From an uncultured bacterium (GTDB taxonomy: Bacteria > Omnitrophota > Gorgyraeia > Zapsychrales > Aceulaceae): a stretch of DNA of 64,000 nt. Of this stretch, positions 5,904-64,000 are shown piece by piece. Position numbers and translations under genes: made by a program. The notes below the pieces were generated by a model. That model had not been told where the DNA came from and did not search any database. It saw only the letters and a list, made by a program, of their open reading frames with translations. Each line of letters opens with the position of its first letter. The stretch's first letter is position 1. The stretch lies in contig CALGLP010000012.1 of NCBI GenBank assembly GCA_937930175.1, forward strand, positions 1,130-65,129. Direction: 5' to 3'.

Positions 5904-5916
5904 TACATTTTCTTTT

Positions 5917-11900: not shown

Positions 11901-14900
11901 ACCGCGCAATCTCCATATAGCGGGTCAAGATCTGACGCAACTCTTCATGCAAACGGGTAAACTCTTTAAGCGCCGCGGAGTCCTTATTTAAATTCTGGTA
12001 TTCACTAACCTGAAATAACAATAGAGAATAAACCCCGTAGGTTGAGGCCATCTCTAGCTCTTTGGGAGTTTTGGCATCACGGATAAGCTCAAGGAGTTGG
12101 GCCGTGGTCCTGACGTTCATAAGCCGTGCGTGATACGTGCGCACCCGTGTACGTTCAAACTGATACGCCTGACCTTCCCAGCGCGTAAATTCCAAAGAAA
12201 AACCTTCAGAGAAAGGCTGGCTGGGCGCACGGTAATGCTTGAAATAATTGGGCTTTACAGCCTTAAGTATATTCCTGATCCTCTCTCCCAACAATGGATG
12301 ATTACCAAAAAAATTCTCCTTACGACCGTCCAGGTCCATGGCTTTTCTCAGCATTTCAAACGGCCTCTGGGCCTTCCCTACGGAATAACCCGCGCCGTCC
12401 ATGATCTCCAAGGCACGGCGATCGGCATCGATCTCATGAACGTAGACATCCACCTCTCCTTGAACATAACCCACGCTCCAATCATAACGGCCCCGCTCCA
12501 TCTTTCGTTTCATCTCGTCCAGCGTTTCGGGTTTGGGCGCTTCTCCCTTGTTGACTTTATCGCGGTCCTGAGTAATATGAGATATTTCATGCGCAAGGAT
12601 AAGCGCTATATGTTCTTTAAAAAACATAAAGAATTTCTCAGGATCCCCCTGACTGCGGCTTTCCTGGATAGCGTAAAAAAACTCCCACAGAAGCCCGATA
12701 TTAAGAACAATATGATTCGAGAAAGAAACGACAAAAGCATTGGCATCGGAATAATCTGCCAGATGAAAATGAAAGCTCCCCGGATCGTAGCCGGCACTCA
12801 CAAGAAGATTGTCGAATATTTCACGTAGTTCGCTGTAAACAGTCCTAAGCTCATCATCCCCATGACTGATGAGGCGGTATTCTTCTCTCGCATATTCAAT
12901 AAAAACATCCGCCGAATGCTGACTCACGTTATAACGCGCAGTCTCAGCGCGACGCTTCCATGTTTTAAGGGCGCTTTGGACATCTCCTTCGCCGCCCATG
13001 ACCTGAAAAACCGTATCCACCGGCGTTTCCCCGGATCTGTCCGCCGCATGAAGAAGGGTATCAAAAAACAGGGCCGCAAACAGCGAGGGGTCCATCCTGA
13101 CTGACAGAACATATTCGTTGATCCCGAAATATCCAGAACCACTTTCATAATTCATCATATACTTGGACGACCACTTGTCTTCTTCTCTCGGGACTACGCC
13201 GATCACAAGCCCGCCTTTGTCACCGGCCGCCTTGATCTGGCGGTGAAAAATCTCTTGATCTGCTGGAGAAAGCCGCTGATACCACTCTCCCAGAAGGGAC
13301 TGCCATTGATCCCGCGTCACACCACTATCGATCAAGTGGTGATCAATGGTGATGATTGTGCCGTCAAGCTCAAGCTGAACATTCCCCGTGCGACCAAGGG
13401 TCTCTCCCCGATAACGATCGACCTTTTTTGCTTCAAAATCCCTAGAATACCGCATGGCCTCAAATGTCGGCAGGCTTTGCCAGGACGTATTCTGCGCCTG
13501 ATCAGGTTCCCGCGCCTTCACGGGCGTGGAATTTCCTGTCTCAAGCGCTATTGGCGCTGATTGCTGTTCAAAGATTTCATTGCTGGAACTGGCTCTCGTC
13601 TCTATAGATTGATCAGTGACCGGAATATCCGACGACGCTACCCGCGGATTTTGGAAAAAGGGTGCCTCTGTTGATGTGCTTGTCCATTCTGGCGCTCTAG
13701 CTTGAACGGAGATTTCGTAGACTGTTTTCTGAGCTCCAGATTTTCTTATATAATTAATAAAAATATGACTTGGCTCTTGGCTTTCATGAAATGACGTATT
13801 TAGGTTCATGACCGTTACCCCTCCCGCAAAGTATTTCCGGGGGATGTTCTTTTTGGTGTAAGGATCATACTCCACCTTCATCATATTGCAGACGCCTTTT
13901 TTAAAGGTTTGGAGGTATTGTTGGTAAATGATTTGAACAGTATCTGGTGAAGAGTGAATAGTATCTAGAGAAGAATTATTCTGAGTTTGTGAAGGGTATC
14001 TGGTATCTAGTATCCGGTGCTTTTCTTCGCCATTTTCTAACGACTCTTCATTGCTTTTTTGGCTAGATACTAGATACTTTTCACTATTCACGACTTCTAG
14101 TCCTTTAACCTTTCTCTTATCCGCATACACCTTATTCAGTATTGAGTTCTTGAGATTCGTCTTATACCAGTAGCTTAAGATAATGCTGTTGTAGATCTGC
14201 CTTAGCTGGGCAAAGTTCTTGCCTTCATTGACTTCTTTTTCCAGGACAGGGATGAAGACCTCACGCACAATACTAGAAGAGATATCAGAAGATGGAGAAT
14301 GGACAATGGAAGATGGAAAAGTCTTAGAATCTAGGGAATCAGGACTTTTATTCGCTGTTGTCTTGTCGTTGTTTTTTCCATCTTCTATCTTCTCCCTTCT
14401 ATCTTCTTTACTTTTCTCTCTTGCTAAATAATCACTTTCCAGCATCACTTTTAATCGCGATTCAACGACAAAGGCCTTATCCTCTTGAACGTAGACTTCA
14501 GCCTTATCGGGCATGATCCAGACCTTGTTAAAGGTGTCGACAGGAACGTTCGTTGTCCCGAATTTCTCATAGGATTGCTTGTAAATCTTTTGCCAGAATT
14601 CTTTACCAAGATCACTATCAGGATTGGTTAAAGAGGCAGTTATTTGCTTTAAGAGATAGTCTTGGGCAAGCATATCAATACCCATCTCGGTAGTCCCAAG
14701 CTCTGCTGGAACGATGCGGTCTTTTTCATAGGGAGAAAGGTTGACCCAGAGATCATTCTCTGGAAGAGTAAGACTTGCCAGGAAGTAGCGGATAAGCTTT
14801 TCGCTTTCGCTCTTTAACTCATCCCCTTGAAGCCCGGAATCACCAGAATCGACAATAAAGTCGAACTTCAGGGGATTGTCAGGGTAGACACGTATTCCAC

Positions 14901-36312: not shown

Positions 36313-36353
36313 CAAAAAGGGGGCTGCGATCTGATCAGATCGCAGCCCCCTTT
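36313..36353 (-). terminator. Rho-independent terminator of giant gene B
   Basis: Perfect palindrome gggggctgcgatctga/tcagatcgcagccccc, followed on the minus strand by UUUUUGCU. It lies 35 nt downstream of the stop at 36386. Confidence 0.55.
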
Positions 36354-36385: not shown

Positions 36386-39300
36386 TCACCCCTTGACCAC
36401 CTCAGCCACCGCAGGCTCCTGTGGTATGTCAAATCCAAGTTGCAACGGCAGATTAATGGGCGTCATCTCAAGGATGATAGGCCTCAAGATATCAATATAA
36501 ATGCTCTCCATATCCTGAAATGGCACCGCGAGCGGCACGCCCTGATCATCGGTCTTGATATTTAACTCTTTATACAATTGAGTCAAGTCCACGCCACCGG
36601 TAGGAGCCGAAGAAACTGAAAAATCAAAAAGTCCTAAAGAAGTAACAAGATCCCACATAAACTGAGAATCTTCAGAGCTTTCGTTCTTAACCATTCCTGC
36701 AAAAATCCTATAATCTTTATCAACGGAAAGGATTAACGCAAACCTTATATTAGTAAACTGTTGCGTATATGCTCTTAAATTATTCCCAAAAGTTTTATGA
36801 CTCTCCGTTGATATATTGCCTTTGACAATAACAGGAACAATAATCTTTGCCTTATTCCCGTCCCTGGCACCTTGGCTGATCTTCCGAAGCTTAGCTTCAA
36901 CCTCCTTTTGCCAAGCCCGCATCTGCCAGTCATCTTTAAAAACTTCCGGATCAATGGTAATGGCTTCTTCAAATAAATCACCATGTTCTTCTTTAAGAGT
37001 TTCTGCAAAACGTGAAGGATCAGGATGCAGAACACAAGCGCTCTGCAAAGAATTTGGATCCTTTACAAGCAAATCATATACTTGCTGAGCAGCCTGTTTT
37101 CTGGCTTTAGTCTTTTTATCATCAACAGCTGTTTCGCGAAGATTGATCAAGGAACGGATAAATTCAGCCGGTACTCCGCCTAAGGCCATAAACTCGCTGG
37201 CCAGAACAACAAAGCGGTCAAAAGAAAACTCCTTTGTGCTATAACGACTATCTTTCTTGTTTAAATCCCTATAAAAATTAACAGTAAAAGAATTTTCCGA
37301 AGGCTTCGCTAAAGCCCAGGACAAGAGATCTTGAATAACTGTCCTTTTGTCACGCAGCAAATCACCATGCATCTCTTTGTCAACGTCCATCATTTTATCC
37401 TTAAGCTCATTAAGCCTGGGGATCAGTTCATCCGTTAGACCTAAGCCTTGTAGCTGCGCTTTGGCAAATCTGACAAAATCGTCCTCGCCAATACCGGAAT
37501 GAGTGCTTTCTGCCAAATCCCGCACCAAGGCTCTGGCCGCAAAGGCATCCAGACGAAGAAGAGCATCCATAAAGTATAAAAAGTTGTCTTCAGTGAATCG
37601 ATACCGATCAACCCCCCCGTTATTAGGACTAAAAATAATATCCTTTGATGTCAGGGCATCTTCAGGCGGCAGATCTCTCGAAAGCACTTCCTTGGCATAT
37701 CTTGCTAAAATCGGCAAAAGACGCTTATCCGTCTTGATCAGGCTGATCAACCTAGTATCAACTATGAACTTCTTATACCGACCGTCTTCATCCTTATTCC
37801 CGCGAAGAATGAGATCCAGATTGGGCCACGTTACCAAAGCATCACCCTGCTCATTAATCGACTTACGCGCATTTGTAGCTGATGAACTGGCCGTGAACTT
37901 GACAACCCAGTCACCACGCATGCTAGATGGCTTAGTCAACGTAACCTTGCCTTCAGAATACTGATAGGTGATGGTGAAAATGTCAGTACAACTCCCGCGA
38001 AAGCTAGGGCCTTCAAAAGTACCCCCTAATTTTGTTATAATAATTGGATTTCCTATATACCTGCCAATCTTATTTAAAACCTGTGTATTGATTACATCGG
38101 GAGTTTCAAACGATCCCGGAAGCTTAAAACTCTCAGCTTTTTCTTTAATACTCGAACTAACAACAGTCGTAACCTTCCAATCCCCTGATTTCTGCGCTGT
38201 AATCGTTCTCTGAGCGTTTTTTAAACCTCGCTGATAAACGACGACCTTGCCCACTAAAATATCGGTCTTTATTGTTTTCCAGCCATTATAGGCATACTCT
38301 TCTGAAATCAGGCGCGCTACCTTTTCCTCGGATAGAACTCTCGAATAGGTCTTAAGCCCAGAGCTGATCTTTTCTGGCGCTGAAACGGCAACAGCAGGAG
38401 CAAATCCATTTTTTGCTAATTCTTTGAGTATGACTTGCCTGATCCATGACGGTTCATCCAGGCCGCGATACTCTGGCGATGACTCAAGAGCGCGATTGAC
38501 GTTTTCGGCGATCTTAAAAGCCATGTCAAAACTGCCTAGAGATTCTTTCGCCTTGCCGTAGAGGTCCTGAAAAGTCACCTCGCGGCCAAAAAGATCTGAA
38601 AGGATCTTCAAGGCATCCTCACCGTTATACGCTTTGGTCATTGACTCAGAAGAAAATCGGTTGACAGAAAATTTTCTTGATCTGACAAGCGACAGGATGC
38701 CTAAGATCGACCAGATTTGACCATCAGCCTCAGGGTCTAAATCCTTGCCCATCAACACCAGAAGCTCATCTCGTGTAAGGGAAAAACCAGGACGAATAAA
38801 TTTAGGATTTGAATCCTTAGAAGCACGATTACGCAAACTCAATCCCAGAGAATCCCTAATCCACTCCTCATAAGACTCTTTATATACTTTTCCATCCGGT
38901 CTAATGTAGACATGCAGGGATTTTAATTCTTGCATCTTGCCTGTGCGATCAACATAGAACCAGGGAGCTGCTTGCTCGCGAAAACGAAACTCGCCAGGAT
39001 AATCACTTTCGATCACAACATTCTCGCCAATTTCAACCCCGCTAAGGTCGACACGGCCACGGATCACGCCAGAAAAAGAGGTTTCACGAAAAGTGATAGA
39101 ACTCTTACTCCTTATGAAATCTATGCTAGGAATCGACACCCTTGGACCCCTTTGCTTCCTTGCTTTTTCTTTTTTCTTATCCGCATTGGTTGAGGTGCCA
39201 AATTCTTCAGATGAATTATCCAAGGTGGTGGTCAACAAATACCACTCCTCATGCTCCCGGAACACAAGATAGGTCAATTGACCGTCCTGAACACCGATCC

Positions 39301-41917
39301 GTGTTTGATCGCTAGAGATCCGGATTTGCGCAGGAAGAATCTTAAATTTTCTCGAAAGAAATACGACCACGGCGAAAACATCTTTTCCCGATAACTCAGA
39401 AACCTCAAATGGTCCCGAAATCACCTGCGCTTTCGGCTCTGTATCGCGCAGCACAGAGGGAACGCTCGGAGACGCCTTGGCCTGCTGAAACGGAATCGGA
39501 GCTCCAAAAGAATCCTTATAAGAAACGACAACAAATCGTGGACCTGCCATCTCCACACCCATAACGGAACTATCTTGGAACGTGATCCATAATCCAGGGA
39601 TCTCGACAGGAAGAGGTTTATTTTCAGAGAAAATTTCCAAGACTTTATAAGGCGAAAGACTCATAGGAAAAATACCCTTAGGTCTTTTATTTACTGCCTC
39701 TGCAATAATCGCCGCCACTTTTTCAGGCGTGAGAGTAAGCGATAAATAAGGAATCTTTGCCGACTCTGTCGGCAGAACAGGCGTTGTTTGATTCGTGGGA
39801 CTTGGTGACTGGGTAAAATCAACATCCTGATTATTCTTGTCGACAACGCCTGAGATCTTCCAACTATTCTTAGAAAAATCCCTTGTAATCAAAATCTTCA
39901 AATCACCATACATCAAGGTAATGGAAACAATTTCTTCCAGCTTGTGAGCACGAGGATCATACTCTTCCAAGAAGAAATTTCCATGAGGAACGTTACGCAC
40001 CACAAACGTCTTTTCAGGGTTTCCATACCCTAAAGCTTCATTTATCTGCGCGGTAATCTCTTCAACAGAAAGCTTGGCGTCTAAATGCGGGATCTTGATA
40101 TTGGAAGATGTCTTGACGACTACTGCTGGACGGGCTGGTCGCTGTGGTAAATGATTAATTTCTACAACTTTCCATTGCGTATTGTCTTCATTTAAACTTT
40201 TTACTTTAACATAACTCGATCCGCCAAAATGGATCTCAACATAAATAATGTCATCGCTGCCATCAACCTCCATCCACATGCTTTCTATTGATTTCCATTC
40301 AGCCCACTCAAGATCCCTTTGTTCACCATCTGAAAAATACACAACTACTTTATCAATCATGCGTCCAGCGTATGTCTTCCACACATCATTTAGCATGGTC
40401 TCGCCAGACCCATTAATAATTTGATTGATCGCTAAACCAGACGATATACGTTTTTTACTCTTAAACGTATACACAACCCACTGGTCGGTGAGATTCTTTA
40501 ACTCTTTATAAGATCCACGCGGGGCAACGGCAACAACGCGGAAGTTACCGGAAATTATTTCGACTGGGCTTAGCGGCGCATTACCGGTCGTAATTTTAGC
40601 TTTTTTGCGATCAATGCTTTGATTATACTTTTTTAGAAGATACTTCCTAATTCGGTCTTGCTTCCATACTTTCGCGCCTTTCTCATCAATAAAATACCGC
40701 TTCTTTCTTTCCCATGGCGAGGTCGATCTTTGGCGAGGCTTAATCCGAGACTTTTTGTTAGACAGGACTGAGCTTATTTTAATATTGCCGCCTCCCTTGC
40801 CAACAATCGTTTCTATTTGACCAGACGTTGGAAAATTGGTCTGCGTTAAATTAATCTCAACCAATGGAATACCCCCGGAGAAATATTTTCGGGCAACATT
40901 ACGCTTGGCTTGAGCGTCGTACTCTGCACGGATCAAATTATACGCCCCTTGTTTGTAAGCAGTTAAATACGAATCATAAATCTTTTGCTTCACAGCCTTA
41001 TCCGTCAAATCAATACCGTTTATTTTGGATTTGTTGACATAGGCTTGACCTAAAAGACTATCTTTTAAATTCTTCTTAAACCATGTTCCTAAGATAAGGG
41101 CATTATAGGCCTGACGCAAGGCGGCAAAATGTTTTCCATTATTCACTTCTTTTTCAAGTTCGGGGATCACAATGTCGCGGACGATTTGGGAGGCAAGTTC
41201 TTGGCTCTTGGCTCTTGGCTCATTGGTTTTGCTATCAGCTATGAGCGATGAGCTCTGAGCTTTTTGCAGCGCGAGGTAATCCTCTTCCAGCATCACCTTT
41301 AAGGACGCCTCGGCCACAAAGGCCATGTTGCCATAGCGATACACAACCGCCTTGTCCGGCATGATCCATACCTTATTAAAAGTATCAACCGGGATCTGCG
41401 TGGTTTGATAGGTTTCATAGGCCTTTTTGTAAACCTTATCCCAAAACTTTTTTCCAAGATCGTTTTCAGGATGGATCATCGATGCGGTAAATTGTTTTAA
41501 GACATAGTCCTGCGCGAGCAAATCGCGGCCCAAATCCGTTTGTGCCAAGGCATCAGGAATGATCCGGTCTTTTTCATACGGAGAGAGATTGACCCACAAG
41601 TCTTTTTCAGGGATCGTCAGAGACGCCAAGAAATATTTGATCATCTTCTCCGATTCCTTCTTTAAAGCCTCGCCTTGAAGATTATCATCGCCATCATTCA
41701 CAATAAAATCAAACTGAAACGGGCTATCCGAGTGGACCTCAACACCTGTCATCATGGCCGGATGAAAGACTGGAGTTGGCGCAAGCAGAGTGCCAGGTGC
41801 GGGCAAGTTGAGCGCTTGAGCAAATCCAGAGGATGGCAAAATAAGATTGACAACAAAACAAACACAGACAAGGCAACGAATCGCCTTTGAGGACCAGTTT
41901 TTTCTAAATGTAAACAT
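36386..41917 (-). CDS. Giant secreted protein B (about 1843 aa from internal Met; ORF-track version 1888 aa to 42052) with family N-domain and C-terminal motif
   Basis: The internal Met at 41917 gives a good signal peptide (MFTFRKNWSSKAIRCLVCVCFVVNLILPSSGFAQA). Conserved N-domain blocks are present (FDFIVNDGDD, YFLASLT, WVNLSPYEKDRI, VDTFNKVWIMPDKA, LKVMLEEDYLA, LEKEVNNGK). The C-terminus is GGVDL...PIILEMTPINLPLQLG. No enzyme motif was recognised in the central 1400 aa. Confidence 0.7.
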   Translation of the reverse strand: MFTFRKNWSSKAIRCLVCVCFVVNLILPSSGFAQALNLPAPGTLLAPTPVFHPAMMTGVEVHSDSPFQFDFIVNDGDDNLQGEALKKESEKMIKYFLASLTIPEKDLWVNLSPYEKDRIIPDALAQTDLGRDLLAQDYVLKQFTASMIHPENDLGKKFWDKVYKKAYETYQTTQIPVDTFNKVWIMPDKAVVYRYGNMAFVAEASLKVMLEEDYLALQKAQSSSLIADSKTNEPRAKSQELASQIVRDIVIPELEKEVNNGKHFAALRQAYNALILGTWFKKNLKDSLLGQAYVNKSKINGIDLTDKAVKQKIYDSYLTAYKQGAYNLIRAEYDAQAKRNVARKYFSGGIPLVEINLTQTNFPTSGQIETIVGKGGGNIKISSVLSNKKSRIKPRQRSTSPWERKKRYFIDEKGAKVWKQDRIRKYLLKKYNQSIDRKKAKITTGNAPLSPVEIISGNFRVVAVAPRGSYKELKNLTDQWVVYTFKSKKRISSGLAINQIINGSGETMLNDVWKTYAGRMIDKVVVYFSDGEQRDLEWAEWKSIESMWMEVDGSDDIIYVEIHFGGSSYVKVKSLNEDNTQWKVVEINHLPQRPARPAVVVKTSSNIKIPHLDAKLSVEEITAQINEALGYGNPEKTFVVRNVPHGNFFLEEYDPRAHKLEEIVSITLMYGDLKILITRDFSKNSWKISGVVDKNNQDVDFTQSPSPTNQTTPVLPTESAKIPYLSLTLTPEKVAAIIAEAVNKRPKGIFPMSLSPYKVLEIFSENKPLPVEIPGLWITFQDSSVMGVEMAGPRFVVVSYKDSFGAPIPFQQAKASPSVPSVLRDTEPKAQVISGPFEVSELSGKDVFAVVVFLSRKFKILPAQIRISSDQTRIGVQDGQLTYLVFREHEEWYLLTTTLDNSSEEFGTSTNADKKKEKARKQRGPRVSIPSIDFIRSKSSITFRETSFSGVIRGRVDLSGVEIGENVVIESDYPGEFRFREQAAPWFYVDRTGKMQELKSLHVYIRPDGKVYKESYEEWIRDSLGLSLRNRASKDSNPKFIRPGFSLTRDELLVLMGKDLDPEADGQIWSILGILSLVRSRKFSVNRFSSESMTKAYNGEDALKILSDLFGREVTFQDLYGKAKESLGSFDMAFKIAENVNRALESSPEYRGLDEPSWIRQVILKELAKNGFAPAVAVSAPEKISSGLKTYSRVLSEEKVARLISEEYAYNGWKTIKTDILVGKVVVYQRGLKNAQRTITAQKSGDWKVTTVVSSSIKEKAESFKLPGSFETPDVINTQVLNKIGRYIGNPIIITKLGGTFEGPSFRGSCTDIFTITYQYSEGKVTLTKPSSMRGDWVVKFTASSSATNARKSINEQGDALVTWPNLDLILRGNKDEDGRYKKFIVDTRLISLIKTDKRLLPILARYAKEVLSRDLPPEDALTSKDIIFSPNNGGVDRYRFTEDNFLYFMDALLRLDAFAARALVRDLAESTHSGIGEDDFVRFAKAQLQGLGLTDELIPRLNELKDKMMDVDKEMHGDLLRDKRTVIQDLLSWALAKPSENSFTVNFYRDLNKKDSRYSTKEFSFDRFVVLASEFMALGGVPAEFIRSLINLRETAVDDKKTKARKQAAQQVYDLLVKDPNSLQSACVLHPDPSRFAETLKEEHGDLFEEAITIDPEVFKDDWQMRAWQKEVEAKLRKISQGARDGNKAKIIVPVIVKGNISTESHKTFGNNLRAYTQQFTNIRFALILSVDKDYRIFAGMVKNESSEDSQFMWDLVTSLGLFDFSVSSAPTGGVDLTQLYKELNIKTDDQGVPLAVPFQDMESIYIDILRPIILEMTPINLPLQLGFDIPQEPAVAEVVKG

Positions 41918-42182
41918 TATGTGGTATTTCCGTTTCTCCGTGGCGTGAGAAAAAGGTGGAGCCCAACAACTAAAGTCATCCGCCCTTCTAAGAAAAGGGC
42001 GAACATCCGCCGAAGCACCAATTACACCATTTTCGTATTCCTCCACGGACAAGCCCGTGGTATCCTGCGTAGGCGGATGGAGCTAAGATTTTAGCTTCAG
42101 GTTTTTTAAAAATATATTTTTTGTTGACTTTGTAAAAGGATAGCACTGGATTAAAGCTTTGACAAGGGCGCGAGGGACAATG

Positions 42183-42227
42183 ACTAAGGGCATAACCCAT
42201 TGTTTATCAATGGGTTATGCCCTTAGT
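42183..42227. repeat. Perfect 20-bp-stem palindrome (hairpin, 5-nt loop)
   Basis: actaagggcataacccattg tttat caatgggttatgcccttagt. There is no adjacent U-tract on either strand. It lies between the glycine-zipper lipoprotein gene and giant gene B. Confidence 0.6.
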
Positions 42228-42289
42228 AATAAAAAATTCTTTGTATTCTTAATAATTATATCAGACTTTTTAAAATAAGCCTCTAAAAA

Positions 42290-43507: not shown

Positions 43508-43565
43508 GGTGTTATTTTAGCATTTTTTCAGAAAAGAAAAAGGATTAAGGAAGGAAAATAATCAA

Positions 43566-43590
43566 GGGCGGCTCTTGACAAGAGCCGCCC
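43566..43590 (-). terminator. Candidate terminator of the PFOR gene
   Basis: Stem gggcggctctt / aagagccgccc (11 bp, 3-nt loop), 30 nt downstream of the PFOR stop. The minus-strand tail is UUGAUUAUUUU, a weak U-tract. Confidence 0.4.
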
Positions 43591-43619
43591 TTTGTTGTTT
43601 CTCAATTTCCTAAAACCTC

Positions 43620-56180: not shown

Positions 56181-56198
56181 AAATTTTAAATTCTTTAA

Positions 56199-56346
56199 AG
56201 AAAATAGAAATTAGAAGATGGAAGATAGAAAATGATCTTAGAACGCGGTAGCTACTTCGTGTTAAAATCAAAGAAGATCAAGGATGCTTTTCTATTTTTT
56301 CTTTTTCTAACTTCTAATTTCCAACTTCTATCTTCTAATTTCTTTA
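56199..56346. repeat. Intergenic palindromic 'tagaag' element between the rubredoxin and flavodiiron genes
   Basis: The arms agaaaatagaaattagaagatggaagatagaaaa (56199-56232) and ttttctattttttctttttctaacttctaatttccaacttctatcttctaatttct (56290-56345) are mutually complementary. An inner gatctt...aagatc hairpin is nested inside. The element is non-coding here. Confidence 0.55.
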
Positions 56347-56348
56347 TT

Positions 56349-56510
56349 TTACTCTACTACCTCAAAATCCTCTTTCCCTACCCCGCACTCTGGACAAACC
56401 CAGGTGCTGGGAATGGCCTCAAAAGCTGTGCCAGGGGCAATACCGCCATCTGGATCTCCTTTAGCCGGGTCATAAACATAACCGCAAACGGTACATTTGT
56501 ATTTTTTCAT
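56349..56510 (-). CDS. rub: Rubredoxin (53 aa; missed by the ORF track)
   Basis: Translation [53 protein letters not shown], with two CxxCG knuckles. A strong GGAGG RBS lies 8 nt upstream. It is immediately upstream of the flavodiiron gene. Confidence 0.85.
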
Positions 56511-56960: not shown

Positions 56961-59900
56961 TTACAACTTGCTCAGCTCCAGACCTTCTGCCTCCTCTTCG
57001 AATACACCTAAAAGAAGGGGCAGGTTCGTCACCGGTGCGACATTGATGATGACAGGATAGAGTCCGTCGACCTGAAGATCCTCAAAATCTTGATTGTTGA
57101 GATCAAATGGGATCGCACTACTCCCCTCTCCCTTGCGCTCAATATTTAGATTCGCCAGATTAAAATCCACACCGCCCTTGATCTTAACTGAAGAAAGTGC
57201 CTCATCTGTGATGGTGCCTTGCTCTAGCCCTGTGGTGACACCCTTAAGATTTTCTTCTAAATCACTATATGAGGTGAACCCCAAAGCATTCGCCATCATT
57301 ACCTTCTTGAATCCTGATAGCTCTTCGCCAGTAAGCTCAAGATAATTCAGAATGACATCCCAAACCGCTTTTTTTGATTTCACCGTCAAATATTTAAGAG
57401 GAATATCCTGCGAAAATGTTACCTCGCCAGGAGATTCATCCTTGCGAAAGCCCGCCTCTTCAAGTTCTTTCTTAGCAAAAATAAGATTAATGCCGCCAAA
57501 ACTGTTGAGAAGGCGCACCCGCGCCATCTGTCCCTGACCCCCAGAGTTAACAAAAATCTTGTCTTTTGACCCTAAAAGCTTTCCTTGGCTTTCAAAAATG
57601 ATCTTATATAAAGCTTCCGACGTTGTAACATGGCCCCAAGCCTCTTCAATACCCGAATAATTCTCAGCCATCCATCCATTAACATCAAAAAACGTCCTAT
57701 AATTTCTTTGTGCAATCTTCTTAAGCGCTACATCTTTTTCTATACCTGGCTGAAGCCTGTCCATTTTATCAATAGCTAATTCTACGGATAACGACTTCTC
57801 AGAAGGAATGTGGGAAGCATTAGCAACAATCCAAGCTCTTGCCGAAACGATGAATTTAAGGGCCTCTTCTGCGCCCATTTGCTTAACAAGACTATTTTCA
57901 ATTTCATATCGAATATCATCCCAAGTAGCATTTGCAAATACATCATCCACTCCCTCCACCCCAAAATCTTTTTTAACTGCCTCGGGTAGGTCGCCTTCTG
58001 CCAGCTCCTCTTTTTCCTTTCCAGCGCTTGCGCCATCATAGCGCAAATATTTCACAGCCCCTGATTTATCAAGAAGCATGACATAAAGTTTTTTCTCAAA
58101 AACTGTAAAATTTACTACGCCGACAAGAAGATAGGGTTTTCGTCCATCAGATAAGGACAGCGTCCCTGGAGCGTCTTCGCGGCCAGCAGGAAAGATCTGA
58201 ATCCCAGGTAAAATAGCGGGATTTGAATCGATATACTCCATTTTTTCTTCGATGGAAAGATACTCTGCCCTGGTAATATTCGCGCGAGGAGCATTAGTAA
58301 AGATTTGCAGAATCCGTGCGTTGATCTGATACCACTCCATCGGCACAAGAGGCGAATTGGCTTTGGCCGCGCCAGATGATGGCAAAGGCTTCTTGGTATC
58401 AACAGGCTTAGAGGGACTTTCCTTCTTTATTTCCCCGCCATATCCAAGCATATGTATGGCATAATAGGCTTCTGGAAAAACATAGTTCATGGCTTCAAAC
58501 CCTACGGGAGGCACAAATTTATTATTTCGCTGAAATTGTGGCCAATGGGTATCAACAATATACGGCATGCCAGCGCCACCCACGTCCACGTAAACCTTCA
58601 AAACTGCATGGGGCACAGCTTGTTTATTGCCGGAATCTTGAAAATCAAAGGGAACGGAAAAATCTTTCTTCTCAAGATCCCAATTGCCGCGGTTTCCGCC
58701 GAGGATATCAAAAAGATCATTGCGAGCAATCTGGCAATTCCTGTCCAAATCATTGCGATGTTTTCTGGCAAGGCCCATAGCCATATCACGCAAAACCGGC
58801 AAGGTCAAGGTAGAACTGACGACCTTCTGCTTCAGTAGTTCATTCTTAAAATTTAAAGTATAAAAAAGAAAATCACGCTTGGCCTCCTGCTTCTCACGAA
58901 TGAGCGGCATGCCATTCTTGAATCCGCCTGAGAACTCAACGGGATAGGCCCCCAGAAACTCAACGGCGCGAATCATGTTCATGTCATCTGTCTCTACCGG
59001 TAAAGCGCTCAACCCTTGAGAAAGCTTACTGTAAAACATAAAACCTTCAACCTTGTTCAAAATATTTTCTTTTTTAAATCCTGCCTTCTCCATTTGCTGG
59101 AGAATAAGAGCCTTCATGAATAAAACATACGAACCTGTCTCAGTCGTGTCGATAAAGCGGATCCCTTTATCTTCGATTTCCTGCCAAGAAATATTAAGCG
59201 TCTCAAAATATTTTGAGAATCCTTCTGCTGCCTTCTGAATACCTGCTTGGTGCTCATTAATCAATTTCGTACGCGGTGATTCGAGGATGCGGCCTTCCGT
59301 GAATGCATTAAAGATAGCAAAGAATTCTTCCTCAAACTTCGCAAATCTATCCTCGGGAACACGGTCCCTCTCCTTCAGATCCATCCGCAGTTTTGCCTCA
59401 GTAATCAGGTAATGAATCGCGCTGGGAAGGGTGTTGGTTTTTTGTCCTCCGGCAAGACTCTCAAAAACCTTGTTGGAGGCAAAAAAACCTTTTTTCTCTT
59501 TTTCCCCTGCCAAATACAGCAAAGCCTCATCTCGAAAGAAATAAATATTATACGCATCGGTGTTTGCAGATTTTCTCTGAATAAAGCGGGTAAAGTTAGA
59601 AGCCGTCTTTGCGGTGTCCCTTATAGTTTCCAAATCATGCCACGCTGGAATCTTCGAAATCCCCATGGCATCCGCAATTTCTTTCATTTCAGCGTCGGTT
59701 ACTGGCCTGTCAATGGTGGCAGAAATGGCATCAACCCATGCGACAAAATCAGAAAACTGATCTCCGATAGGATCTTGATAAAGCTTTCTTATTTTTTCAA
59801 CAAGCGTCGAGGCGGAGGAATTGGTTGTGCCAGGCTGGTCTGCGGGCGCAGCTTGCGCTTGTTCTTCTTCGATGAATTCCTTCACATTCTCTAAAACGAC

Positions 59901-62225
59901 AGTGCGCATCATTTCATAAGTTGGAGCGCTTTGGCCATTTTTCGCTCTTAAGTCCTTATACTGATCAAATGTCAGTCCATACTGACGCATAAAAGAACCT
60001 TCATATCCCTCAAACTCTGAAATCTTGTCGAAACCTTCAGCAAGTCCATCGGCAATATCACTCTTGATGCGATCCATTATGCTTTTGAGAGGTTCAATAT
60101 CTTGCGAACCAAATTCTTTCCCCACCTTTCTATAAAAAATATCATAAATCGACTGCAAAGATTGCCTTAGCTCAAGATTGCTTTCGCTTGCGATATAATC
60201 TCGCAATTCGTCACCGTTTAAGACAAATTGCCTAAAAAATTCCGCTAAAAACTGGTTTGGCCCATACTCTCTAAGATAGGTATTGCGAATAAGGCTTTTT
60301 GTGCTGAAATCCAAGATATTTTCTTCATCACTTGGAAGCAACACGCGATACTCCTTGACGGCCTTGATCTTGTTGTAAAATTCAACAGCGCTTGCGCGAT
60401 CCTCAGAAGAAAAATGGCTCTCAATGCTATGACCAATTTCATGCAAAATCAAACGTGCCAATCCAAACAAATCCCAATACGCAATGCCCAGAGAATCAAT
60501 CGTTACCATTTTCTCTTCGATGTCATAATTCCCAACATCTGGCCGAGCCATTCGAGGAACAGGCATGCCGAACAAAAACTTAGTAATAATTTGCCGGCCT
60601 CTTTCTCCCTCCTTCAAATCTTTCTTATCGCCATAGTCTAAAACCTCTCCAGGGACCAGGGACAACAAGAAAGCAATAAAATTTCTTAAATCTGTCTTGC
60701 CTGCAGGAAACACTTTATAGAAAAACTCAATATTGTGCTCTCTGAACACATCGGGTATTTCTTGATTTACTGCTTTGCTTGGACTACCTTCAGGTGGTTC
60801 TTTGCCTTTAGAATCTTGAAACTTAAATTTAACGTTTTTAAAAACAGCTTTAATTTTTCTTACAAATGCTCCATCTCTTATTCGCTGGATAGCTACCTTG
60901 ATATTGCTCGAGTTAAAACCCCCTGAAAAATACTTACGCGGGATGGCCTTTTTGGCATAGGGGTCATACTCGACCTTCATCATGTTGCAGACACCTTTTT
61001 TGTACGCAGCGAGGTATTGCTGGTAAATAAAATTGACATCAGAAATTAGAGGTTGGAGGTTAGAAGCTAGAAAAAGAACTGAAGATTGAGAATCGATGTT
61101 GGAAGTTAGATTTTTTTCGTTGTTTTTTCTATCTTCTCCCTTCTCCCTTCTATCTTCTATCCTCAATCCTTCCACCTTTCTCTTATCGCTATACACTTTA
61201 TTCAAAATAGAATCCTTGAGCGTTTCCTTAAACCACGTAGCCAAAATCAGCGAATGATAGATCTGGCGCAAATTCGCGAAATTCTTGCCCTCATTGACTT
61301 CCTTTTCCAGGGCCGGGATAAAGACTTCACGAACGATACTAGAAGAGATATCAGAAGTTAGAGGTTGGAGATTAGAAGTTAGAAGAGGCGAAGAAGAATC
61401 TTTTGTGTTGTTTGGATTTGCCTCTTCTCCCTTCTCCCCTCTATCTTCTAACTTCTTTTCTGAATTCTTCTGCTCTGCTAAATAATCACTTTCCAGCATG
61501 ACTTTCAATCGTGATTCCACAATAAACGCCTTGTCGCCATTTTCATAAACAACCGCCTTTTGCGGCATGATCCACACCTTATTAAAGGTATCCACCGGAA
61601 CATTGGTTGTGCCGTATTGTTCAAAGGCTTTTTTGTAAACCTTGGCCCAGAATTCTTTGCCCAAATCAGAATCGGGGTTGATCAAGGATGCGGTGATCTG
61701 CTTTAAAAGATAATCTTGCGCCAACAGATCGCGGCCCATCTCCGTCTGGCCAAAGCCTTCGGGCACGATGCGGTCTTTTTCATAGGGCGAGAGATTGACC
61801 CATAGGTCGTCTTCGGGCATGGTCAAGGACGCGAGAAAATATTTCACAAGCCTTTCTGTTTCTTTGTTAAACGCTTCGCCCTCGAGCTTCGCGTCACCCA
61901 CATCAACAATAAAATCAAATTCAAAAGGATTCGCGGCATTGGTCCTGATCCCGCGCAAGATCGTCGGAACAAAGCCTAGGCTCAACGCCACAGCTGTACC
62001 TGGCGCTGGCAGCCCTAAGGAACTTTGGGCATAGCTTAGGGATGGCAAAAGGGTTTGGGTGAGAAAAATGAGGCAGACAGAAATGGAAATAATCTTTTTG
62101 GAATGAGTAGAAAGTAGAGAGTAGAAAGTAGAGAGTAGAAAACGAAAAGAACGACAAAAAAGAAGGCAAAATTCCTTTTGCGATCTTTGCGTCAGTTGTT
62201 TTATAATATCTTTTTCTCTGTTCAT
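56961..62225 (-). CDS. Giant secreted protein C (1754 aa) with family N-domain, HEIGH zincin-like domain and C-terminal motif
   Basis: Conserved N-domain blocks are present (FEFDFIVDVGD, YFLASLTMPEDDLWVNLSPYEKDRI, VDTFNKVWIMPQKA, LKVMLESDYLA, LEKEVNEGKNF, CNMMKVEYDPY). A HExxH motif sits in LARLILHEIGHSIESH. The C-terminus is GGVDFNLANLN...YPVIINVAPVTNLPLLLGVFEEE. The first 45 codons lie inside an intergenic-looking palindrome, so the exact start is uncertain. Confidence 0.7.
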   Translation of the reverse strand: MNREKDIIKQLTQRSQKEFCLLFCRSFRFLLSTFYSLLSTHSKKIISISVCLIFLTQTLLPSLSYAQSSLGLPAPGTAVALSLGFVPTILRGIRTNAANPFEFDFIVDVGDAKLEGEAFNKETERLVKYFLASLTMPEDDLWVNLSPYEKDRIVPEGFGQTEMGRDLLAQDYLLKQITASLINPDSDLGKEFWAKVYKKAFEQYGTTNVPVDTFNKVWIMPQKAVVYENGDKAFIVESRLKVMLESDYLAEQKNSEKKLEDRGEKGEEANPNNTKDSSSPLLTSNLQPLTSDISSSIVREVFIPALEKEVNEGKNFANLRQIYHSLILATWFKETLKDSILNKVYSDKRKVEGLRIEDRREKGEDRKNNEKNLTSNIDSQSSVLFLASNLQPLISDVNFIYQQYLAAYKKGVCNMMKVEYDPYAKKAIPRKYFSGGFNSSNIKVAIQRIRDGAFVRKIKAVFKNVKFKFQDSKGKEPPEGSPSKAVNQEIPDVFREHNIEFFYKVFPAGKTDLRNFIAFLLSLVPGEVLDYGDKKDLKEGERGRQIITKFLFGMPVPRMARPDVGNYDIEEKMVTIDSLGIAYWDLFGLARLILHEIGHSIESHFSSEDRASAVEFYNKIKAVKEYRVLLPSDEENILDFSTKSLIRNTYLREYGPNQFLAEFFRQFVLNGDELRDYIASESNLELRQSLQSIYDIFYRKVGKEFGSQDIEPLKSIMDRIKSDIADGLAEGFDKISEFEGYEGSFMRQYGLTFDQYKDLRAKNGQSAPTYEMMRTVVLENVKEFIEEEQAQAAPADQPGTTNSSASTLVEKIRKLYQDPIGDQFSDFVAWVDAISATIDRPVTDAEMKEIADAMGISKIPAWHDLETIRDTAKTASNFTRFIQRKSANTDAYNIYFFRDEALLYLAGEKEKKGFFASNKVFESLAGGQKTNTLPSAIHYLITEAKLRMDLKERDRVPEDRFAKFEEEFFAIFNAFTEGRILESPRTKLINEHQAGIQKAAEGFSKYFETLNISWQEIEDKGIRFIDTTETGSYVLFMKALILQQMEKAGFKKENILNKVEGFMFYSKLSQGLSALPVETDDMNMIRAVEFLGAYPVEFSGGFKNGMPLIREKQEAKRDFLFYTLNFKNELLKQKVVSSTLTLPVLRDMAMGLARKHRNDLDRNCQIARNDLFDILGGNRGNWDLEKKDFSVPFDFQDSGNKQAVPHAVLKVYVDVGGAGMPYIVDTHWPQFQRNNKFVPPVGFEAMNYVFPEAYYAIHMLGYGGEIKKESPSKPVDTKKPLPSSGAAKANSPLVPMEWYQINARILQIFTNAPRANITRAEYLSIEEKMEYIDSNPAILPGIQIFPAGREDAPGTLSLSDGRKPYLLVGVVNFTVFEKKLYVMLLDKSGAVKYLRYDGASAGKEKEELAEGDLPEAVKKDFGVEGVDDVFANATWDDIRYEIENSLVKQMGAEEALKFIVSARAWIVANASHIPSEKSLSVELAIDKMDRLQPGIEKDVALKKIAQRNYRTFFDVNGWMAENYSGIEEAWGHVTTSEALYKIIFESQGKLLGSKDKIFVNSGGQGQMARVRLLNSFGGINLIFAKKELEEAGFRKDESPGEVTFSQDIPLKYLTVKSKKAVWDVILNYLELTGEELSGFKKVMMANALGFTSYSDLEENLKGVTTGLEQGTITDEALSSVKIKGGVDFNLANLNIERKGEGSSAIPFDLNNQDFEDLQVDGLYPVIINVAPVTNLPLLLGVFEEEAEGLELSKL
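61041..61180. repeat. In-frame palindromic 'tagaag/ggagg' insertion within giant gene C (insertion 2)
   Basis: agaaattagaggttggaggttagaagctag ... ttctatcttctcccttctcccttctatcttctatcc. It encodes EDRREKGEDRKNNEKNLTSNIDSQSS...ASNLQPLISD between the conserved KRKVEGL and IYQQYL blocks, and is absent in paralog B. Confidence 0.5.
61338..61462. repeat. In-frame palindromic 'tagaag' insertion within giant gene C (insertion 1)
   Basis: agaagttagaggttggagattagaagttagaagaggcgaagaag ... cctcttctcccttctcccctctatcttctaacttct. It encodes EDRGEKGEEANPNN...LLTSNLQPLTSDISSS, the same site as A insertion 1. Confidence 0.5.
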
Positions 62226-62290
62226 CTCTTTCTCTCTATCTACTCTATCTACTCTACCTACTCTATTTACTTTCTACTTTTTCTTTTCCC
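62098..62290. repeat. Large imperfect inverted repeat (gagtagaaagtaga units) between giant genes D and C
   Basis: The left arm (62104-62140) is gagtagaaagtagagagtagaaagtagagagtagaaaa. The right arm (62226-62275) is tctctctatctactctatctactctacctactctatttactttctac, complementary to the left. The 85-nt loop contains TTGCGA-17-TTATAAT on the plus strand. Confidence 0.55.
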
Positions 62291-62292
62291 TT

Positions 62293-64000
62293 CTAACTTC
62301 CAACTTCTAACTTCTCTTTTTCTCCAAGCCCCAGCAGCCCCATAAAGTCGGTCACAGGCGTTACATTAATGATGATCGGCACGAGGCCTTCAAAATGGTC
62401 AGAAAAAATAGGGCTAGAGGAATTAAGGATGAAAAGATTTGGGTGATCAGATTGTGTCATGTTTAACGTGTTAGGTGTTAGGTTGTTTTGGCCTTCCGTG
62501 ACACTTGACTCTTGAAACTTTTCACTATCCTTTATCCCTTGACCCCTTTGCCCCTCTACTCCTTTTACTTTTACATTCATATTCTTAGCGTTAAAATCGA
62601 TTCCTCCTTTGGTGCCACTTGTATTCGCTGACGATGTAAGAAGCTTATCAATATGAATAATAAATTCCGTAAGAACTAAGCCATTATCGGTTCTTGTTTT
62701 TTGAATAGCGCACGGAGCCTTATCCATCAAGGTCGTCACACTCTCAGGGATCTGATCGCCACCCGTATCCGGGGACAATACCGTAGACTTTAAAAAAACG
62801 ATTTTCTTCCCATCAGCAGAAAGGGATCCCTCCCGAAGATCGATCTTGTAACGAACAGGCCCTGCAACACCCCCAGCCTGCTCGTAAAGATCCTGAATGG
62901 CCCCAGCCAACAAGACAGCATCTTTTTCCTCAAAATGCTTGCCATCTAAAAGAGCCGGCATCTCCTGCGCAACAAGACCATTCACAGATCTTATGGATAA
63001 ACTGCTAAATAACGTATTGGTCAGATTATTTTCTTCAACTACATTCATTACCTCTGGACTTAGATTACTATCGATAACTTTTTTATCAAGATTAGTCCTC
63101 ACCTCAATTAACCCAAAAATAGAGCTTAGTGGGTCCTCGCGAACGGAGAATTTAATCGCATCCTCCATTGCCTGCGGAAGCATCGCATGAATAAAAACAC
63201 CAGTTTGATTGATGCCTAAGGTCTTAGCGTCAAAATCCTCCTGATCGCCTTCTGAGCTCAGAGGAGATTTTAAATTAACAGTACGAACAATACCATCCTT
63301 TGCGACAGATATAAAGATCGCAGGAAAAGCCGTATCACCTAAAACAGCAGTACCCCTGCCTTCTTTACCCATATTGTCGGAATTAAGCGTGTCGTCTTTC
63401 TGCACTTTTCCTTTTCGGTATGACCCATCAGAAAAAATATCCTTTAAGTTTGTAACAATTTCGCCTTGTTCATCAAAAACACCCGGACCATAATCAAAAG
63501 CAAAAATCTCTATTCCCCCTGGCACCTCTTTTAAAAGCACAAGGCCTTGGCCTCTTGCATGTTGAATCATGTTTTCCGTGATACCATCAACAACCGCTCT
63601 CTGGTCTGGGGACATGCTTATTAGAGCATCGTCATCTAATATAATTTCACGATTTTCAACAACAACAAGCATAAATCCGCTGTCACGCGCAAATTGCTTG
63701 GCGCTCTCAAATGATTCTGGCCCCTTTTTCCACAAATCAGCCATTTGCTGGACAACGGACGACGAAACAGGAGTCTTTTCTTGTTCACGTACAACATTGT
63801 TCGACGAAACCTTCTGCCTCCTCCACTTCCCGCCATCTTCACTTCGCTCAAAAACCATTTCCTGTTTGCTAGGGGCACCAAGGCCCTCCACGTCATCATA
63901 AAATTGGAAACGGATCTCCTCAATTCGCCCATTTCTCACTTTTCGCGTGAGTCGAACAGACTGAAACCCTTTTGTAGGCATAAGCTTTGTCCCTGTCCAG
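62293..64000 (-). CDS. Giant-protein family member D, 3' portion (reading frame stays open to the window edge; N-terminus not in window)
   Basis: The C-terminus GGIDFNAKNMNV...LVPIIINVTPVTDFMGLLGLGEKEKLEVGS is nearly identical to protein A's. The last roughly 60 nt are about 85-90% identical to the 3' end of gene A. There is no stop upstream of the listed Met, so the gene probably extends beyond 64000. Confidence 0.7.
   Translation of the reverse strand, partial: WTGTKLMPTKGFQSVRLTRKVRNGRIEEIRFQFYDDVEGLGAPSKQEMVFERSEDGGKWRRQKVSSNNVVREQEKTPVSSSVVQQMADLWKKGPESFESAKQFARDSGFMLVVVENREIILDDDALISMSPDQRAVVDGITENMIQHARGQGLVLLKEVPGGIEIFAFDYGPGVFDEQGEIVTNLKDIFSDGSYRKGKVQKDDTLNSDNMGKEGRGTAVLGDTAFPAIFISVAKDGIVRTVNLKSPLSSEGDQEDFDAKTLGINQTGVFIHAMLPQAMEDAIKFSVREDPLSSIFGLIEVRTNLDKKVIDSNLSPEVMNVVEENNLTNTLFSSLSIRSVNGLVAQEMPALLDGKHFEEKDAVLLAGAIQDLYEQAGGVAGPVRYKIDLREGSLSADGKKIVFLKSTVLSPDTGGDQIPESVTTLMDKAPCAIQKTRTDNGLVLTEFIIHIDKLLTSSANTSGTKGGIDFNAKNMNVKVKGVEGQRGQGIKDSEKFQESSVTEGQNNLTPNTLNMTQSDHPNLFILNSSSPIFSDHFEGLVPIIINVTPVTDFMGLLGLGEKEKLEVGS

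Follow-up and report, generated by a model that had tools for sequence, protein, structure and literature searches.

The 64,000-nucleotide (nt) stretch of an uncultured Omnitrophota genome analysed here (GenBank assembly GCA_937930175.1, contig CALGLP010000012.1, positions 1,130 to 65,129; hereafter, the window, with positions given in its own numbering) encompasses a gene, denoted C, that encodes a secreted protein of 1754 amino acids (aa) in a single unbroken open reading frame (ORF; 56961-62225, minus strand). The N-terminal domain of this protein hosts two in-frame inserts, C1 and C2, at two loops that we denote site 1 (S1) and site 2 (S2), respectively. We conclude that these inserts are probably dispersed palindromic repeats of about 105-150 nt, similar in kind to the Rickettsia palindromic elements (RPEs), that are tolerated in, or targeted to, the two disordered loops and turn over there.

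C1 (61351-61458, minus strand) is a palindromic heptamer-repeat element read in frame as ..EKKLEDRGEKGEEANPNNTKDSSSPLLTSNLQPLTSD.., the translation consisting of three parts, EKKLEDRGEKGEE, ANPNNTKDSSSP and LLTSNLQPLTSD, in that order. C2 (61039-61180, minus strand) is a degraded copy of the same family that is translated as ..RIEDRREKGEDRKNNEKNLTSNIDSQSSVLFLASNLQPLISD.., with RIEDRREKGEDRK, NNEKNLTSNIDSQSSVLF and LASNLQPLISD as the three successive parts. An earlier note on this DNA had placed the inserts at 61338-61462 (S1) and 61041-61180 (S2); the insert strings quoted in that note are present, at 61353 and 61424. On the coding strand of both C1 and C2, a purine-rich arm is followed by a loop and then by a pyrimidine-rich arm, and the coding copies read as a charged stretch rich in E, K, R and G, a loop, and a stretch rich in L, S, T and P. 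The arms of C1 (61353-61392 and 61417-61456) are 40 nt each, 78% complementary, and contain the units AGAAGTT, AGAGGTT and GGAGATT. The RNA fold of C1 has a z-score of -5.3 on either strand, which none of 200 dinucleotide shuffles equaled, and the DNA fold, also compared with dinucleotide shuffles, has z-scores of -3.2 (sense) and -4.8 (antisense).

The approximately 400 residues that follow the signal peptide of the gene C product are homologous to the N-termini of two paralogs in the window, gene A (5917-15081, minus strand; 3054 aa, unbroken ORF) and gene B (36386-41917, minus strand; the probable start is the ATG at 41917, MFTFRK...), the identity to gene A in this region being 54% for gene C and 47% for gene B. 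Protein alignments bear out the statement of the earlier note that C and A carry inserts at the same two linker sites: relative to B and most of the homologs, both contain extra in-frame sequence at two identical positions of the domain, and gene B has no insert at S2. In the AlphaFold2 model of the gene C domain (mean predicted local distance difference test score, pLDDT, 82; predicted template-modeling score, pTM, 0.79), most 10-residue blocks of the core reach a pLDDT of at least 90, and the score drops to 45-55 in both insert regions, so that both inserts are predicted to form floppy loops attached to a folded core. At E <= 1e-3, 1356 homologs of the domain were detected, those with a named source being nearly all from Candidatus Omnitrophica/Omnitrophota, and there are several paralogs per genome. 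The domain has no match in Pfam or NCBIfam, and a Foldseek search yielded no fold match in PDB (best E 0.29); judging from the model, the domain may be a candidate for an undescribed fold. The closest match to the window sequence in the protein database shows only 65% identity, and the source genome is also not among the species-representative genomes.

C1 and C2 form one oriented family with two other elements of the window, namely A1 (14285-14409, minus strand), located at S1 of paralog A, with arms (14287-14320 and 14374-14407) that are 74% complementary and comprise AGAAGAT, GGAGAAT and GGACAAT units, and IG56 (56197-56348), an intergenic copy with 35-nt arms, 83% complementary, that is located between a small rubredoxin-like ORF (56346-56510, read by eye) and a flavodiiron-protein gene. 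The four elements align in register, with a mean column identity of 66-68%, and have in common about five units per arm as well as small loop motifs, for example, AATC and TCGTTGTTTTTTC. The consensus stem predicted with RNAalifold consists of 29 pairs, 6 of which stay paired despite changes on both sides. Covariance model scores for the plus and minus strands of the C1, C2, A1 and IG56 set are 134 and 48, 110 and 62, 107 and 72, and 85 and 52 bits; given that all four copies score far higher on the plus strand, the element has a polarity that is common to all of them. The unit-junction 9-mers AGAAGTTAG, AGAAGATAG and AGAAGATGG are found inside elements in 15 of their 17 occurrences, compared to 0.5-0.7 expected for each. 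A covariance model built from C1, A1 and IG56 only recovered C2 at its full length, with 84.7 bits and a rough E-value of ~6e-18, and because the C2 hairpin is thermodynamically marginal, its membership in the family is based on this similarity of sequence and structure.

The repeat is a property of the nucleic acid rather than of the peptide. The earlier note had named codon constraint on the units as the finding that would count against its reading of them as DNA-constrained; instead, the period is 7 nt, with pooled arm identities at lags 7 and 14 of 0.62 and 0.56, respectively, versus 0.29-0.36 at all other lags, including 3, 6, 9 and 12, where there is no signal. The period is present in each arm of each element, the arms containing about 4-5 imperfect units, with lag-7 identities of 0.42-0.82 across all 15 arms (0.64-0.66 in C1 and 0.57-0.76 in C2) and, in the gene C arms, never more than two identical units in succession. 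Four consecutive CTTCTNN units, with at most one mismatch, occur six times in the window and not once in 100 shuffles. The 7-nt period, together with the complementary arms and the existence of an intergenic copy, indicates that the constraint acts on DNA or RNA.

With a unit length of 7, which is not divisible by 3, TAG or TAA within a unit comes into frame once every three units, and direct reading of C1 shows that exactly such stop-bearing units are altered, to GGGGAGA in the purine arm and CTCCAAC in the pyrimidine arm. The coding copies contain no stops in the frame of the gene and 2-5 in each of the other sense frames, except for the short element of gene B described below, B1, in which these numbers are 1 and 3; C1 has 3 and 2 in the other two frames, and C2 has 5, 3 and, in the gene frame, 0. 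The intergenic copies, including IG56, have stops in all six frames. Since a palindrome reads almost alike on both strands, purging the stops in one frame opens the mirror frame, which accounts for the look-alike antisense ORFs pointed out in the earlier note (14219-14431 and 61285-61485), both of which are indeed present, start with TTG and begin (M)PSLTSFSR...; the latter, a spurious ORF of 66 aa on the plus strand, is kept open by the C1 palindrome.

Three additional hairpins, A2, B1 and IG62, have the architecture of the C1 family and other unit sequences. A2 (13934-14098, minus strand), at S2 of paralog A, is a palindrome of GTATCTAG and GTGAAGA units, which within the window are confined to this element; its inverted repeats (13947-13968 and 14070-14091) are 91% complementary, it was not picked up by either of the covariance models R1 and R2, and a similar type is present at S2 of another Omnitrophota locus, L002. 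B1 (41196-41268, minus strand), at S1 of paralog B, is a short hairpin of (GCTCTTG)n and (xATGAGC)n units, with lag-7 identities of 0.82 and 0.71 and a fold z-score of -4.9 on the plus strand. IG62 (62101-62318) is a related palindrome of GAGTAGA and AAGTAGA units that bridges gene C and its neighbor, gene D; it folds with z-scores of -5.8 and -6.9 and yields weak matches to the covariance models (33-34 bits). Across the window, the elements are 104-165 nt long, and their fold z-scores range from -2.4 to -7.3, apart from C1, with the value given above, and the marginal C2; five of the seven hairpins lie within ORFs and are translated. The earlier view that the inserts of A and C share one unit vocabulary therefore holds for S1 of gene A, with its AGAAGAT and GGAGAAT units, and fails for S2, where the units are unique in the window. 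Similarly, A1 and C1 have the same boundaries and register, each contain five units per arm and share a loop motif, so that common descent, or copying between the paralogs, is plausible for this pair, and for this pair only: neither works at S2, given that A and C hold different unit types there.

The two loops are insertion sites throughout the gene family. We mapped the sites with phmmer and MAFFT in 99 full-length copies of the domain, from 80 Omnitrophota loci and the window, representing about 50 genomes. Insertions of at least 15 aa occur essentially only at S1, the variable loop after ...MLEEDYLA, and S2, which lies between ...KVAGVDIDD and PNEKEKIY..., with one more at a rare third site. 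The long versions form hairpins at both sites, which those of canonical length do not. At S1, 41 inserts are long and 58 short, with median fold z-scores of -5.0 versus -0.5 (Mann-Whitney p 3e-10); at S2, there are 23 long inserts and 76 of canonical length, with medians of -4.1 versus -1.0 (p 1e-7). An independent inverted-repeat finder, which handles ungapped arms only and missed C2, placed 16 of its 47 matches within S1 and S2, although these sites make up 1.2% of the 1.3 Mb searched. In other genomes, the two sites hold many unrelated repeat families, several of them GC-rich and non-periodic, which encode peptides such as SPPLVGGARGG...NPPHGGGG, SVIPAKAGIQ, VILSAAKDLK...SSASPQND, MDSRFHGND and PTRGHV...VSPSTLP...LNVKAPQGN. 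Heptamer hairpins of other units are found there as well, for example, GGATAGC/CTAAACG in L001, AGACCAT/GGTCTxT in L037 and TCCCAAG/CTTGGGA in L029. In seven loci (108 kb) of the sister genome nDJH6bin18, a family resembling repetitive extragenic palindromes (REPs) is present at S1 in one paralog and at S2 in three, as well as in at least three places outside the domain, and a second family occupies S1 of three paralogs and two places outside the domain; in L001, S1 and S2 encode a nearly identical peptide (SGQRIADSNxKxLNAKRSTL). The window is an instance of this general pattern, in which a genome's own repeat family fills both loops. Of the two readings offered in the earlier note, independently hit insertion hotspots or an ancestral insert diverging by slippage, that of hotspots is well supported at the level of the family by the confinement of insertions to two sites, the hairpin nature of the long inserts, the many repeat families found there and the unrelated hairpins of orthologs, with an ancestral insert plausible for A1 and C1 alone; overall, the interpretation of the inserts as DNA-constrained and located at hotspots was largely right.

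Several of the family loci show composite or disrupted elements. In L082 (893-1180), a second, GC-rich palindrome lies inside the loop of an AGAAG-type heptamer hairpin at S1, the same GC-rich element being present at S1 of L011 (499-702), and a small GCCTGCCGGCAGGC palindrome is nested inside S2 elements. Among the closest homologs, L083 contains a TGA within its S2 heptamer array (1230-1328), and the contig of L082 ends shortly after S1 (1180-1280); the loss of frame and the contig ends near these hairpins fit assembly breaks at multi-copy or heterogeneous repeats. L081 harbors additional intergenic heptamer hairpins, at 4473-4640 and 9100-9290, with (AAATTCG)n and (ACAATAT)n units; on the sense strand, their stems depend on numerous G.U pairs, a hint of pairing at the RNA level.

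Comparison of orthologs points to turnover of the elements. In the core of the domain (218 columns), gene A is 80-84% identical to L083, L001, L002 and one L003 copy and 73% identical to paralog C; the S1 hairpins of these gene A orthologs are nevertheless unrelated to A1, the units being 9 nt long in L083, GGATAGC in L001 and of the GTATCTAG type in both L002 and L003, and A1 resembles C1 instead. Likewise, L081, from genome GCA_028693815.1, is a syntenic ortholog of gene B (PFOR - DsbD - ... - family gene), and its S1 hairpin is of the AGAAGAY type, as opposed to the GCTCTTG units in gene B; about 30 of 33 nt in the pyrimidine arm of this hairpin match that of A1, as counted by eye, with the respective domains only about 60% identical at the protein level. 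Thus, the similarity of the inserts tracks the genome, or the lineage of the repeat, and not the gene tree, which argues for copying between loci, beyond vertical descent alone. Gene conversion might contribute to such copying. Contrary to the 80-85% identity of the flanking coding DNA claimed in the earlier note, A and C are 70% identical overall (572 of 812 nt), and only the blocks adjoining S1 reach 87-100%; the 22-nt string noted as shared by the two genes does start at 14270 in A, and its start in C is 61336 rather than 61338. When third codon positions are compared at conserved residues only, with inserts excluded (segments 13800-14960 and 60915-62030), the identity of A and C is 38% (38/99) upstream of S1 versus 62% (53/86) across S1-S2 (Fisher p 0.002, from small numbers). 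These counts suggest gene conversion between paralogs A and C over the S1-S2 segment, and the match between A1 and C1 may have arisen in this way.

The arms of the gene C inserts each consist of about five imperfect heptamers in tandem, which resemble AGAAGWT in one arm and its complement in the other. In the scenario that we favor, that of dispersed palindromic repeats, the elements would be non-autonomous repeats that are copied or spread within the genome, either through a process akin to transposition or through gene conversion involving paralogs and hairpins. Coding copies would survive only where a disordered loop tolerates some 30-50 extra residues; thereafter, two pressures, to keep the frame open and to maintain the stem in part, would shape them, and they would eventually decay or be replaced. 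A hairpin that is already present may favor the arrival of another element, and replacement at a fixed site would then be explained; the nested cases, L082 and the GCCTGCCGGCAGGC palindromes in S2, fit this possibility.

Several observations weigh against this scenario. No transposase, REP-associated tyrosine transposase (RAYT) or insertion sequence (IS) was found among the scanned ORFs of the 64-kb window, and no target-site duplication was recognised by eye at the element boundaries. Since the window is only 64 kb of the genome, the description of the elements as dispersed relies on 4-7 copies and on the analogy with sister genomes. Five of the seven hairpins are in a single gene family, with the two others flanking its members, and this concentration could reflect a family-specific function rather than selfish spread. 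Furthermore, the stem of C2 barely beats composition-matched shuffles (RNA fold z-scores of -1.2 sense and -2.9 antisense against dinucleotide shuffles, with a DNA fold that is not significant), so that maintenance of the stem is not universal. Finally, A2, B1 and IG62, having the same architecture with unrelated units, are not explained by a single master copy; unit turnover in situ or the existence of several families fits them.

Unit turnover is central to the explanation that dispenses with new insertions altogether, whereby one ancestral hairpin per site was inherited with the paralogs and altered by 7-nt slippage and copying between the arms. We regard this as rather unlikely, even though it accounts naturally for the matching boundaries, register, approximate number of units and loop motif of A1 and C1, tandem arms are able to pair in several registers, and a common architecture with different units (AGAAGWT, GTATCTA, GCTCTTG and GAGTAGA and, in related genomes, GGATAGC, AGACCAT and TCCCAAG) is what such turnover predicts. 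The intergenic IG56, which is in register with the coding copies, does not fit inheritance at two coding sites, and neither do the non-periodic, GC-rich REP-like families that elsewhere occupy the same sites and also occur outside them. Inheritance is similarly at odds with the likeness of the A1 and L081 pyrimidine arms despite the divergence of their domains, with the different unit types at S2 of A and C, and with the canonical length of S2, that is, the lack of an insert, in 76 of the 99 family members. A selected function of the hairpin itself, in mRNA processing or stability, as a translational pause between folding units, in antisense termination or as a recombination hotspot for paralog shuffling, seems distinctly unlikely, although it would be in line with the high occupancy (5 of the 6 possible sites in the window, and long inserts in 41 of 99 family members at S1 and 23 of 99 at S2), the polarity of the elements with respect to the gene, which is the same in the window as in L081 and L082, the six pairs with compensatory changes, the elevated synonymous identity of the paralogs across S1-S2, and the better folding of the antisense (plus) strand, through G.U pairs, in six of the seven elements. 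However, most family members lack long inserts, so that the hairpins are dispensable; several stems are degraded (C2, as well as S1 of L081, at -19.7 kcal/mol); the same repeat families are present in ordinary intergenic DNA; and there is no Rfam match.

We cannot offer more than a slim chance to a contingency locus, in which slippage of the heptamers would switch the genes on and off, 7 not being a multiple of 3, or vary the length of the loop: arrays of such units within ORFs of secreted proteins would suit this role, as would the end of the L082 contig after S1 and the stop inside the S2 array of L083. The units, however, are imperfect and number 4-5 per arm, and the lag-7 identities, along with the absence of three identical units in a row from gene C, argue against fast phase variation, which we consider unlikely at the gene C inserts; moreover, slippage switches do not need complementary arms, contig breaks are equally expected at multi-copy repeats, and the elements at the same sites in other genomes include non-periodic ones. 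That the inserts are spacers selected as peptides, charged and Ser/Thr-rich, with the DNA repeat incidental, is hardly credible. The peptides are indeed charged or rich in S, T and L and lie in loops predicted to be disordered, but the period is 7 nt and not 3, 6 or 9, the complementarity of the arms has no peptide-level explanation, the intergenic copy has stops in all frames, and the peptides are wholly different between orthologs. A more speculative version of the hotspot idea, which appears improbable although appreciably less so than the two preceding ones, is that the loops serve as landing pads for active copying and replacement directed by hairpins, in which an undescribed enzyme or hairpin-primed gene conversion repeatedly overwrites them with the current palindrome of the genome. 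If true, this would amount to repeat-driven diversification of exposed loops in a large family of secreted proteins, and heptamer-armed hairpins would be products of a widespread, undescribed generative mechanism.

Under the preferred interpretation as dispersed palindromic repeats, the closest known counterparts are in Rickettsia, where translated palindromic repeats in intact genes are best documented. RPEs are dispersed palindromic elements of about 100-150 bp that can form a long hairpin, with a size near 150 bp and in-frame insertion in many genes described in PMC10969869; there are both coding and non-coding copies, and the in-frame peptides are compatible with the protein fold (Ogata et al. 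2000, 2002, as summarised in PMC10969869). The window elements are comparable in that they are 104-165 nt long and form hairpins (marginally in the case of C2), that related copies are found in coding (C1, C2 and A1) and non-coding (IG56) DNA within 64 kb, and that the inserts are in frame in intact ORFs of 1754 and 3054 aa, on surface loops of the predicted model with a pLDDT of 45-55. They differ in that RPEs occur in Rickettsiales, in many unrelated genes, and have arms of unique sequence, whereas here, in Omnitrophota, two fixed loops of one multi-copy family are occupied, the arms are tandem heptamers and orthologs differ in the hairpin they hold. To our knowledge, RPEs have no transposase of their own, and heptamer-repeat arms are not part of their description. 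A Rickettsia enzyme that contains an RPE has reportedly been expressed with and without it to probe the tolerance of the fold. Given this difference in the arms and the difference in taxon, the window elements are not members of the RPEs but only analogous to them.

Other classes of repeats share some of these features. By definition, REPs lie outside genes, and they are associated with a RAYT gene. Like REPs and REPINs, the window elements are short, non-autonomous hairpin repeats in many copies, and the sister Omnitrophota inserts at both loops are GC-rich REP-like palindromes; five of the seven window hairpins, however, are intragenic, and there is no RAYT in the 64-kb window. Miniature inverted-repeat transposable elements, or MITEs, are characterised by terminal inverted repeats, by target-site duplications and by a parent IS (PMC10969869); the window element is an inverted repeat in its entirety, with no boundary duplication seen by eye and no transposase among the scanned window ORFs. 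From phase-variable repeats, the window elements differ in having imperfect units, 4-5 per arm. Closest in architecture are heptanucleotide tandem arrays, which, according to PMC4692102, have hardly been studied; they include GGGAATC in Xanthomonas and GGGGA(C/T)T in Nostoc (short tandemly repeated repetitive sequences, STRRs), typically with about 4-5 units, and in Xanthomonas there are 70-75 cases of nearby arrays on opposite strands that could form stem-loops (PMC4692102); TAACTGA arrays have been described in Beggiatoaceae (PMC4679880). Arrays of the Xanthomonas type are dispersed in the genome, frequently next to a start or stop codon; they are rich in G, have been discussed in connection with G-quadruplex formation, and mostly lie between genes, being under-represented in ORFs (in Xanthomonas, 7-11% are intragenic; PMC4692102). 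The window elements have in common with these arrays the tandem 7-nt units and the nearby complementary arrays on opposite strands, and differ in the units, AGAAGWT, GTATCTA or GAGTAGA, which lack G tracts, and in that five of the seven hairpins are translated. Intrastrand-triplex motifs were ruled out, given that these have three segments, with stems of 6-15 nt, as against two arms of about 35 nt here (PMC4666352). The whole window has no Rfam match at the gathering score, with only a sub-threshold resemblance to plant miRNA-precursor hairpins.

Heptamer-armed hairpins are not limited to this phylum. A metagenome scan for four successive CTTCTNN units detected at least 120 loci, and among the loci listed, 30 have the array as an arm of an inverted repeat, on contigs of 35-70% GC, none of which carries the N-terminal domain of the Omnitrophota family, so that such hairpins are widespread beyond Omnitrophota. 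For example, L091 (2100-2229) contains (AGAAGAC)5 ... (GTCTTCT)5 with 95% complementarity, and L100 (3807-4060) has 60-nt arms. L091, L088 (710-870), L100 and 27 more loci form near-perfect hairpins of (AGAAGAC)n/(GTCTTCT)n or (AGAAGTC)n/(GACTTCT)n; the examples have 35-67% GC, with L091, L088 and L100 at 57-61%.

Heptamer arrays also abut the ends of genes A, C and D in the window. The only ATG of gene C (62225) lies in the loop of the IG62 hairpin, the left arm of IG62 is translated as an unusually long N-terminal extension of the gene C product (...SFRFLLSTFYSLLSTHS...) that precedes the signal peptide, and the stop codon of gene D (62293-62295) is in a heptamer array just outside the stem. 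Thus, IG62 appears to have donated the start codon of gene C. The 3' end of gene A, including its last codons and stop codon, is a half array, TTCTAAC TTCCAAC TTCTAAT (5905-5945, minus strand), of which there is a near-identical copy at the 3' end of gene D (62290-62330). The last ~70 nt of genes A and D are about 90% identical (5905-5990 and 62290-62370), and the DNA farther upstream aligns poorly; in this shared end, the half array, GAGAAGT TAGAAGT TGGAAGT TAG in the coding orientation, encodes ...GE(E/K)EKLEVGS and provides the TAG stop. Because the elements produce mirror-image antisense ORFs, supply start and stop codons and adjoin contig ends (L082 and L083), they can mislead gene callers and homology searches.

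The C-termini encoded by genes A, B, C and D (5917-6000, 36386-36470, 56961-57050 and 62293-62380) share, some 15-25 residues before the end, the motif P[VI]I(I)N[VI]xPVT....LLG, which has no match in Pfam or NCBIfam and could be an undescribed sorting signal. Near-perfect short, GC-containing intergenic palindromes at 36316-36353, 42180-42230 and 43556-43600, with arms of 22-23 nt that are 86-100% complementary, look like ordinary terminators, unrelated to the heptamer family. Gene content is that of an ordinary chromosome, with rpsB, lpxB, a Bat/MoxR cluster and a PFOR-sized ORF that is syntenic with the PFOR of L081. GC skew on the plus strand is negative in all 8-kb blocks (-0.10 to -0.18), and the minus strand encodes nearly all long ORFs, including all genes around gene C, so that the window is on one replichore, with a strong gene-strand bias.

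Omnitrophota is a phylum of uncultured, very small, possibly host-dependent or predatory bacteria, and two preprints on its giant proteins mention neither palindromes nor hairpins. The case described here extends in-frame palindromic repeats of intact genes to this phylum, and adds features that are unusual, namely, arms made of tandem heptamers and an occupancy concentrated at two loops in a protein family of more than 1300 members, in which the hairpins differ between orthologs. The family provides a natural series for the conversion of selfish or structural DNA into protein under the joint constraints of stem pairing and an open frame, and the system allows one to test whether hairpins attract further insertions.

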